A stretch of DNA of 62,562 nucleotides, taken from the UHGV virus genome UHGV-0106067. One strand, 5' to 3'. The translations under genes were made by a program, and so were the position numbers. Positions 48,092 through 48,452 of the stretch are shown here, piece by piece (position 1 is the stretch's first letter; every line of letters begins with the position of its first letter). This DNA comes from a virus. The notes beneath the pieces are model-generated. The model did not search any database, was not told where the DNA came from, and was given only the letters and a program-made list of their open reading frames with translations.

Positions 48092-48124
48092 ATGACCATT
48101 GAATGACCATTGAATGACCATTGA
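48092..48124. repeat. 11-bp direct repeat x3 (atgaccattga)
   Basis: read directly. Confidence 0.9.
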
Positions 48125-48160
48125 AGGACGCACTAAATTATTTTCAGCAATCCCTCAGCC

Positions 48161-48283
48161 TACGAAAATTCTGTATCCCCTGAATGTTTAATTTACACTC
48201 TTTTTATGCAATTATTCTTTCGACTATAAAAACACCACTATCTCATGTATGACCTTGGGGAGCGTGCCGTCTCCCCGTTTTTT
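48161..48283 (+). ncRNA. candidate small RNA, unit 1 (ends at intrinsic terminator)
   Basis: shares leading motif tacgaaaattctgtat with unit 2; ends with ggggag-cgtgccgt-ctcccc + tttttt; no credible ORF. Confidence 0.3.
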
Positions 48284-48337
48284 CGCTTACAGTTTCATGA
48301 CGACTTTCAGTTTCAGGAATCAGCAGTTACCATGCAA

Positions 48338-48452
48338 TACGAAAATTCTGTATTGCATCCGCGCCCTCATCTCAATATCTTTGTCGCCGGATAAAAATAA
48401 CTATCAACCACAAGTATCATGCTCTCGGGGAGCACGCACTCCCCAGTTTTTT
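48338..48452 (+). ncRNA. candidate small RNA, unit 2 (paralogous to unit 1)
   Basis: starts with motif tacgaaaattctgtat inside 9-bp inverted repeat atgcaatac/gtattgcat; ends with ggggag-cacgca-ctcccc + tttttt. Confidence 0.3.

Follow-up and report, generated by a model that had tools for sequence, protein, structure and literature searches.

Two boxed, terminator-capped units upstream of a prophage eib-family adhesin gene: candidate small RNA genes or opposite-strand terminator modules

The UHGV virus genome UHGV-0106067 was analysed as one strand of 62,562 nucleotides (the window). Within it, an 818-bp non-coding spacer separates an eib-family trimeric autotransporter adhesin gene from a tail-fibre-assembly gene. 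The distal half of this spacer, which lies ahead of one class of prophage eib-family adhesin genes, contains two units on the plus strand, and each is built on the same plan, namely a 16-nt box, an AU-rich body of ~75–80 nt and a strong plus-strand intrinsic terminator (Table 1). We tentatively favour the reading that short non-coding plus-strand transcripts are ended by these terminators and that unit 2 is the better candidate for a small RNA (sRNA). This reading is ranked first among those considered, and its main rival is pure insulation against antisense transcription. At best, the units would represent a prophage cargo-linked sRNA or terminator module.

A first-pass annotation of the region had described the two units as beginning with the same sequence, and all of the features it listed are present at or within a few bases of where it had placed them. 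The common start is an exact 16-nt repeat, TACGAAAATTCTGTAT, and when up to two mismatches are allowed the 62.5 kb contain no match besides the two boxes, where 0.03 would be expected by chance. Within the box, TAC-N9-GTA forms a partial dyad. Variation was assessed in an alignment of 48 distinct homologous spacers (alleles) collected from IMG/VR, metagenomes, genomes and phages, in which the boxes carry singleton changes only, two of them in box 1. A near-palindromic sequence three mismatches away from the box, TACGAAAATTTCGTAA at 25412–25427, lies within the open reading frame (ORF) 25265–26002 and is probably a chance match. Unit 2 had been said to start inside a 9-bp inverted repeat, and a perfect repeat of this length indeed surrounds box 2; the ends of the box are predicted to be paired in a hairpin in this unit. 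One allele shows an uncompensated G>T change in the repeat.

From the box to the T-run, unit 1 measures 124 nt and unit 2 measures 116 nt. Local alignment of the two recovers the 16-nt box only, and a collinear global alignment gives a z score of 9.6. When this alignment was dissected, the box matched at 16 of 16 positions and the terminator plus tail gave z 7.4, with z 2.0 for the segment preceding the box and z 0.4 for the bodies. What the units have in common is therefore a plan and two modules, and no shared body can be recognised. The earlier description of two paralogous units of about 115–125 nt is accurate as to length, and as to paralogy it applies to box and terminator but not to the bodies. 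A third homologous unit in 48454–48582 was ruled out, as the similarity of this segment to units 1 and 2 was not significant.

Table 1. Features of the eib spacer and its surroundings in the window (dG, folding free energy in kcal/mol; PWM, position weight matrix; TRF, Tandem Repeats Finder).
Feature	Position	Strand	Description
T0, GGGGAGCA-TGT-TGCTCCCC + T7	45722–45749	+	GGGGAGC type; borders directly on the orf60-like gene's stop codon; missed in the first-pass annotation
eib-family trimeric autotransporter adhesin gene	46488–47762	−	424 aa; YadA_anchor domain
Long-type non-coding spacer	47763–48580		818 bp; between the adhesin and tail-fibre-assembly genes; from ORF map and GC profile
Best predicted adhesin promoter, TTGAAC-17-GATAAT	47780–47808	−	start near 47773, ~11 nt before the eib ATG; PWM scan
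11-bp perfect inverted repeat, GAAATTCCGAA / TTCGGAATTTC	47866–47903		near eib; annotated as stem_loop in AF151091
Perfect CRP-type consensus, TGTGAagttagTCACA (TGTGA-N6-TCACA)	48019–48034		predicted site; only perfect match in the 62.5-kb window
11-bp tandem repeat, ATGACCATTGA	48092–48129		3.5 copies; TRF score 69
Candidate promoter, TTGAAT-18-TAAATT	48110–48139	+	start near 48146; PWM score 8.1; prediction
Box 1, TACGAAAATTCTGTAT	48161–48176	+	exact 16-nt repeat of box 2
Unit 1 body	48177–48255	+	AU-rich; alleles A (this window) and B, ~70% identical
T1, GGGGAG-loop-CTCCCC + T6	48256–48284	+	hairpin 48256–48277, dG −12.5
9-bp perfect inverted repeat, ATGCAATAC / GTATTGCAT	48332–48340 / 48350–48358		encloses box 2
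Box 2, TACGAAAATTCTGTAT	48338–48353	+	exact 16-nt repeat of box 1
Unit 2 body	48354–48426	+	3 of 73 columns variable among 48 alleles (0.04)
T2, GGGGAG-CACGCA-CTCCCC + T6	48427–48453	+	hairpin 48427–48444, dG −11.6
Hairpin H, AAGGAG...CTCCTT	48467–48492	+	dG −9.6 in the window; missed in the first-pass annotation
T3, GGGGC-loop-GCCCC + T7	48556–48581	+	T-run and tail-fibre-assembly stop codon overlap; missed in the first-pass annotation
Tail-fibre-assembly gene (DUF4376)	48581–49159	−	domain match and homologue annotation

Both units are capped, as had been noted, by near-identical strong terminators in plus orientation, with GC-rich stems of 6–7 bp, loops of 6–8 nt and a T6 run. T0, first picked up as a weak terminator-only match of a covariance model of the units, was confirmed by its sequence and by a terminator scan. 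T0, T1, T2 and T3 all have the sequence expected of an intrinsic terminator on the plus strand, a predicted GC-rich hairpin followed by a T-run. On the minus strand the same hairpins are preceded by A-runs and followed by no U-tract, and hence they would act in one direction only. T1 to T3 represent three canonical plus-strand terminators within 330 bp, and the 1.3 kb scanned contained five terminator-like sites versus 0.8 expected. The neighbouring genes are all on the minus strand in the ORF map, and the units are thus antisense to everything that flanks them, in line with the first reading. The other strong terminators of the minus-strand late region are mostly co-directional with the genes, which makes opposite-strand terminators mainly a trait of the eib cassette (spacer, eib, orf156 and orf60). 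With T0 at its far end and T1–T3 at its near end, this cassette is bracketed by opposite-strand terminators.

The orientation and strength of T1–T3 imply plus-strand transcription from the eib control region towards the tail genes. According to the model that we favour, RNA polymerase would start in the AT-rich eib control region, with candidate starts at ~48095, 48146 and 48340, head away from eib and halt at T1, T2 or T3, so that short non-coding plus-strand RNAs of ~115–190 nt would result. At least the unit 2 RNA, comprising box 2 in its hairpin, the conserved body and T2, would have a regulatory function as an sRNA. The box common to both units would be the candidate for recognition, much as tandem sRNA paralogues retain similar 5′ and 3′ ends and diverge in between. 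As a side effect, antisense transcription would be kept out of the tail genes. Plus-strand transcription, its start sites, the stability of the RNAs and the existence of targets are what we infer here. An identical box in units with unrelated bodies, the conserved unit 2 body and the occurrence of T2 in all 48 alleles speak for an sRNA function.

The alleles differ markedly along the spacer, the eib-proximal 330 bp being almost invariant and the distal part a mosaic. In the unit 1 body 35% of the columns are variable, and the lowest variability in the distal spacer is that of the unit 2 body. Fifteen alleles, including that of eibA, have a deletion of 117 bp, which truncates unit 1 at its 3′ end and eliminates T1 and box 2. 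One metagenome contig (L163) is a clean box-to-box recombinant without unit 1 and another (L185), which also has the 117-bp deletion, is an A/B chimera inside the unit 1 body; together these two indicate active recombination in the spacer. A box with the unit 2 body and T2 behind it is preserved in all structural variants, and none of the 48 alleles lacks T2, H or T3. The T2 stem has a G>T mismatch in five alleles; in the one of these that was folded (L007), an A>G change at the base of the stem partly offsets it. In the divergent alleles hairpin H gains pairs and has a trailing T-run, its dG reaching −14.8 in L007 and L019, and in four alleles a G·U pair is replaced by G-C. The T3 stem is retained in L007 with a different loop.

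Several results weigh against an sRNA function. The unit bodies fold no better than shuffled sequence (z −0.3 to −1.1), unit 2 reaching z −2.1 when the 9-bp repeat is folded along with it. In seven alleles an A·C mismatch breaks the ATCCG/CGGAT stem predicted for unit 2. Pair-by-pair counts over the 48 alleles, in which variation is too low for a strong test, gave uncompensated breaks and no compensatory substitution for T1 and T2, for the 9-bp repeat and for the unit 2 stem. T1 and one box are deleted in 16 of the 48, and the T1 stem is decayed in about nine B alleles, where its dG is −2.7 as against −12.5 in A alleles, with one module lost or damaged in half of the related loci. No plus-strand promoter candidate common to both units was detected in the PWM scan. 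The Rfam scan that had been proposed as a check covered the whole window at gathering threshold and 47700–48700 at E ≤ 10; it matched no family in the unit region, the relaxed search of 47700–48700 giving noise only (snoRNA and frameshift models, 11–21 bits). When the unit RNAs were compared with the translation-start regions of eib and of seven genes near it, predicted pairing did not exceed background. Finally, the low variability of unit 2 may come from recent spread and recombination rather than selection, as the whole proximal spacer is likewise near-invariant. Of the first-pass proposal of duplicated small RNA genes, the layout and the orientation thus held up, whereas the PWM scan predicted no shared promoter, T1 is often lost or decayed, and neither covariation nor an Rfam match was seen; the proposal is now possible mainly for unit 2.

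Several of these observations would fit a directional insulator instead. The plus-strand terminators, T0 at one end and T1, T2, H and T3 at the other, would then keep spurious or divergent transcription that arises in the eib region, which is AT-rich and horizontally acquired, from reaching the tail genes in antisense, and would shut antisense transcripts from outside out of the cassette; the short RNAs would be functionless by-products and the duplication a neutral back-up terminator. T1 is dispensable in many alleles and T2 and T3 stay, T0 is oriented likewise at the other cassette boundary, and the GC profile shows an AT-rich 28–40% GC for the spacer together with the 5′ part of eib (the spacer has 35–44% versus 50–55% in its flanks). 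Further support comes from relatives with other spacers. The spacer of eibC, eibD, eibE and the eib gene of PhiR12_3 is different, 358–363 bp long, with only ~34 nt next to the start codon in common, and the adhesin gene of phage GER2 has a third spacer type of 479 bp, whose proximal ~175 bp are 72% identical to the long type. All three unrelated types (818, ~360 and 479 bp) end in a strong plus-strand terminator that touches the stop codon of the tail-fibre-assembly gene. In the eib-less relative phiSTEC1589-Stx1c (L215, 2025–2495) the same slot holds two tandem units, 73% identical over ~100 nt, each ending in a plus-strand terminator and unrelated in sequence to those of the eib spacer. The slot after the tail-fibre-assembly gene thus seems to collect terminator-capped modules. 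What insulation leaves unexplained is why an identical 16-nt box stands ahead of each terminator when the bodies are unrelated, and why variation is lowest in the unit 2 body; a single terminator would suffice. We regard it as somewhat unlikely to be the whole explanation and place it second to the sRNA reading.

No homology of the units was found to the short eibC/D/E spacer, to the distal GER2 spacer or to the phiSTEC1589 inter-gene units. Since the eibC/D/E and GER2 spacers are without them, the units are no general property of eib genes. This bears on the second suggestion of the first-pass annotation, a regulatory array for the adhesin, and likewise on the alternative that the boxes work as DNA. 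IbrAB is a known activator of eib genes, and the boxes, together with the inverted repeat near eib, might bind an eib regulator (a host response regulator or IbrAB), the terminators being incidental. A core CGRAAWTTC is common to this 11-bp inverted repeat and to both boxes (48163–48171 and 48340–48348), and the 818-bp spacer accounts for four of its eight matches in the window, the motif having been chosen after the sequence was seen. Such binding would agree with the dyad symmetry of the box, with the 9-bp perfect palindrome around box 2 and with the perfect CRP consensus of the neighbouring invariant region, in which ATTTGTATAC also forms an inverted pair. The latter sequence occurs only twice in the window, at 47787–47796 (minus strand) and 47994–48003 (plus strand), ~200 bp apart, and one copy overlaps the predicted eib promoter within the only ~34 nt common to the eibC/D/E spacer. 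Expression of EibG is also known to vary with conditions (PMC4352079).

A role of the boxes as DNA sites is nevertheless improbable, given that the motif was defined post hoc, that box 2 is deleted in one third of the alleles and that eibC/D/E do without boxes. A by-eye comparison of the box with known regulator sites (LexA half-site, ArgR, RcsAB-like) gave no convincing match. Moreover, eibG with 168 bp of upstream sequence, carried on a plasmid, complements a deletion and restores chain-like adherence, with vector promoters as a possible contributor (PMC13534694). This result agrees with the eib-adjacent position of the predicted adhesin promoter, which lies in invariant sequence and whose −10 region falls within the sole stretch common to the short eibC/D/E spacer. 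As the repeats vary in number, eibC/D/E and GER2 lack units and 168 bp are enough for eibG function, adhesin expression appears not to need the units, and a regulatory array for the adhesin is unlikely.

The repeats in question are those at 48092–48129, where a triple 11-bp direct repeat had been reported just upstream of the units and 3.5 copies were found. Most of the 48 alleles have one copy, ~14 have two and only this window has three; the triple repeat is hence a private copy-number polymorphism of the locus. With one to three copies and ATG>ATA variants among them, the repeats have neither the conserved number nor the conserved sequence of an iteron or operator array. The plus-strand promoter candidates are all weak (TTGAAT-18-TAAATT, TTGTGC-17-CACAAT and TTCAGT-16-TACCAT; PWM 5.8–8.1). 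The −35 hexamer TTGAAT of the first is formed at the junction of two 11-bp repeats and is missing from one-copy alleles, so that this candidate exists only in alleles with at least two copies. Flanked by the predicted eib promoter on one side and the 11-bp repeat on the other, the CRP-type consensus falls within the invariant part of the spacer near eib; this predicted site could serve one or both of the divergent directions.

Short proteins, such as a small protein or a type I toxin with one short hydrophobic peptide per unit, were considered as a further explanation, e.g. a 22-aa ORF from 48184 or a 24–46-aa ORF in B alleles. Short ORFs do end just ahead of T1 in A and B alleles, and the automated annotation of PhiR5_2 places two 49-aa coding sequences here. 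However, start codons are changed from ATG to ATA in several alleles, the frame differs between A and B alleles, frameshifts occur (a 4-nt duplication in L019, a 2-nt deletion in L007), no corresponding ORF exists in unit 2, a Shine-Dalgarno sequence is missing, and the annotated ORFs run through the terminators. The plus-strand ORFs of 22 aa (from 48184) and 25/46 aa were accordingly ruled out by lost starts, frame changes and frameshifts among alleles, the 49/91-aa ORFs likewise by allele comparison, and a 55-aa minus-strand ORF by its interruption in L001, L007 and L019. The region is non-coding on both strands, the ORFs of either being broken in some alleles. It had been remarked that the only ORF across the units reads through both terminators, and this is the case for ORF 48249–48524 (plus strand), which runs through T1 and T2. 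A small-protein origin is largely refuted by the allele comparison and is very improbable.

The long-type spacer was detected in 27 of 5426 complete Escherichia coli genomes, at 71 places with a median of three per genome. All loci that were retrieved and annotated are chromosomal and lie between a tail-fibre-assembly gene and a YadA-anchor gene, and RefSeq holds no annotation inside the spacer. Homologues also occur in phages PhiR5 and PhiR12 and in prophage P-EibA (GenBank AF151091). A covariance model of the units (box to terminator), run over 252 kb of window and related loci, found the known units only, plus weak terminator-only matches such as T0. In species-representative genomes a protein scan found no Eib relatives, and the 16-mer box gave chance matches only among the matches listed. 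A cluster of box matches in Pasteurellaceae and Neisseria was ruled out as units, since it represents one conserved coding gene. In the E. coli genomes the long-type spacer is always accompanied by eib, and the units are restricted to eib cassettes. This narrow distribution, together with the mosaic structure (A and B alleles, an A/B chimera, two different deletions, a variable repeat number), the decay of T1 and the absence of covariation, would also suit functionless relics, decaying leftovers of cassette exchange or tandem duplication in a recombination-prone moron slot that are kept by linkage to eib. Yet T2, H and T3 stay stable hairpins even in the most divergent alleles and the boxes are almost invariant, and we consider a relic slightly less probable still than binding of a regulator to the boxes.

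A described locus close to this one is the eibA upstream region of P-EibA (AF151091; Sandt & Hill 2000), which belongs to the same spacer family (91.9% identity over 86% of the query). It shares box 1, the unit 2 body, T2, H and T3 with the window and differs in a 117-bp deletion, by which T1 and box 2 are lost, and in a single repeat copy. The entry annotates the eib-proximal stem-loop only, leaving the boxes and the plus-strand terminators unmarked. The units are undescribed in the literature searched, which included papers on EibG expression and on the Pas/EcOnc sRNAs and did not extend to the original Sandt & Hill papers on eib/IbrAB. No link between eib loci and sRNAs was found in the same literature.

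In OmrA and OmrB, tandem sRNA paralogues of E. coli, the 5′ element is near-identical, the middle is unrelated and the Rho-independent terminators are similar; both have conserved, regulated promoters, are proven to be transcribed, bind Hfq and have known targets. In architecture the units come closest to this pair and to the antisense sRNAs found beside morons in prophages of enterohaemorrhagic E. coli. They resemble OmrA and OmrB in being adjacent and on the same strand, with a shared 5′ box, an unrelated middle and similar terminators. Unlike OmrA and OmrB, they gave no conserved promoter in the PWM scan, one of them is often deleted or decayed, and they are longer (~116–124 nt from box to T-run). 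Membership of an sRNA class requires a transcript and is not claimed. A more specific model, which we view as doubtful, would make the units a pair of OmrA/OmrB-like sRNAs with the 16-nt box for recognition, transcribed divergently from the adhesin gene, possibly under the CRP site at 48019–48034. Their output would be tuned by expansion of the 11-bp repeat through the −35 hexamer, and they would link carriage of the adhesin prophage to host regulation, e.g. of aggregation, biofilm or envelope.

Among phage-borne sRNAs, AsxR, AgvB and EcOnc01–03 of enterohaemorrhagic E. coli lie antisense beside prophage virulence morons, with one end shared and the other variable (Tree et al. 2014, PMC4104026). 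The units are similarly short and terminator-capped, and they too adjoin, in antisense orientation, a virulence moron of a lambdoid/Shiga toxin (Stx)-type prophage. They differ from these sRNAs, which are 51–60 nt long, lie downstream of PR′ and are found beside stx-type morons (PMC4104026). AgvB and AsxR are represented in Rfam, and neither matches the window at gathering threshold or 47700–48700 at E ≤ 10. O157 strains, including Sakai and EDL933, are absent from the 27 carrier genomes, assuming that those two are part of the 5426-genome collection. PasB is an sRNA with an intrinsic terminator among the capsid and tail genes of a phage structural operon (PMC8550237; bioRxiv 10.64898/2026.05.13.724894), and the units are likewise prophage-borne, terminator-capped and placed within structural genes. 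PasB differs in being widespread, with 1158 hits in 1362 genomes, and was found in enteropathogenic E. coli E2348/69 (Pearl Mizrahi 2021, PMC8550237; Zhu et al. 2026). That strain is not among the 27 carriers, and on the assumption that it is in the collection, the carrier list sets the units apart from the Pas/EcOnc sRNAs.

The adhesin encoded next to the spacer has a C-terminal part of ~160 aa (stalk and anchor) that is near-identical to EibA and EibC and a head, at the N-terminus, that is unrelated to either; the signal peptide is also common to the three, and beyond it only the C-terminal ~160 aa match. Eib adhesins confer immunoglobulin binding, serum resistance and chain-like adherence in Shiga toxin-producing E. 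coli (STEC) negative for the locus of enterocyte effacement and in other E. coli, and their regulation is poorly understood. In lambda-like tails the cassette is positioned after J-lom-stf-tfa, in the window it lies mid virion gene cluster in a short-tailed Stx-phage-like prophage, and the same cassette was found in several phage backbones. A phage moron has been characterised as a promoter, gene and terminator inserted between phage genes (Juhala et al. 2000, as cited in PMC4104026). The eib gene has this layout, with a predicted promoter beside it, a co-directional terminator at 46438–46454, deviant AT-rich composition and virion (tail) genes on both sides. The eib cassette additionally has bracketing opposite-strand terminators and upstream boxed units, with which classical morons are not described.

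If the units are sRNA genes, a cassette-specific riboregulator would have been added to a virulence moron, and they would be a further case of sRNAs that travel with prophage cargo genes. If they are opposite-strand terminators only, they would show an AT-rich moron in a tail operon that is insulated against antisense transcription, in a layout that recurs in three unrelated spacer types. Either way the finding concerns a rare element, and its significance would be modest.

Elsewhere in the prophage, Rfam matches were obtained for STnc100 (2809–3025, minus strand, 149 bits), for the sok antitoxin RNA (6786–6960, minus strand, 118 bits) and for adjacent isrK (16002–16077) and C4 antisense RNA (16102–16189), both on the plus strand. 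An ORF of 2783 aa at 28940–37291 (minus strand) has the polyvalent-protein domains LPD38, LPD5, LPD1 and MuF_C. The tail-fibre gene at 49179–51242 (minus strand) contains long collagen triple-helix repeats, and its local GC fraction rises to 0.72, compared with 0.35–0.40 in the adjacent spacer.

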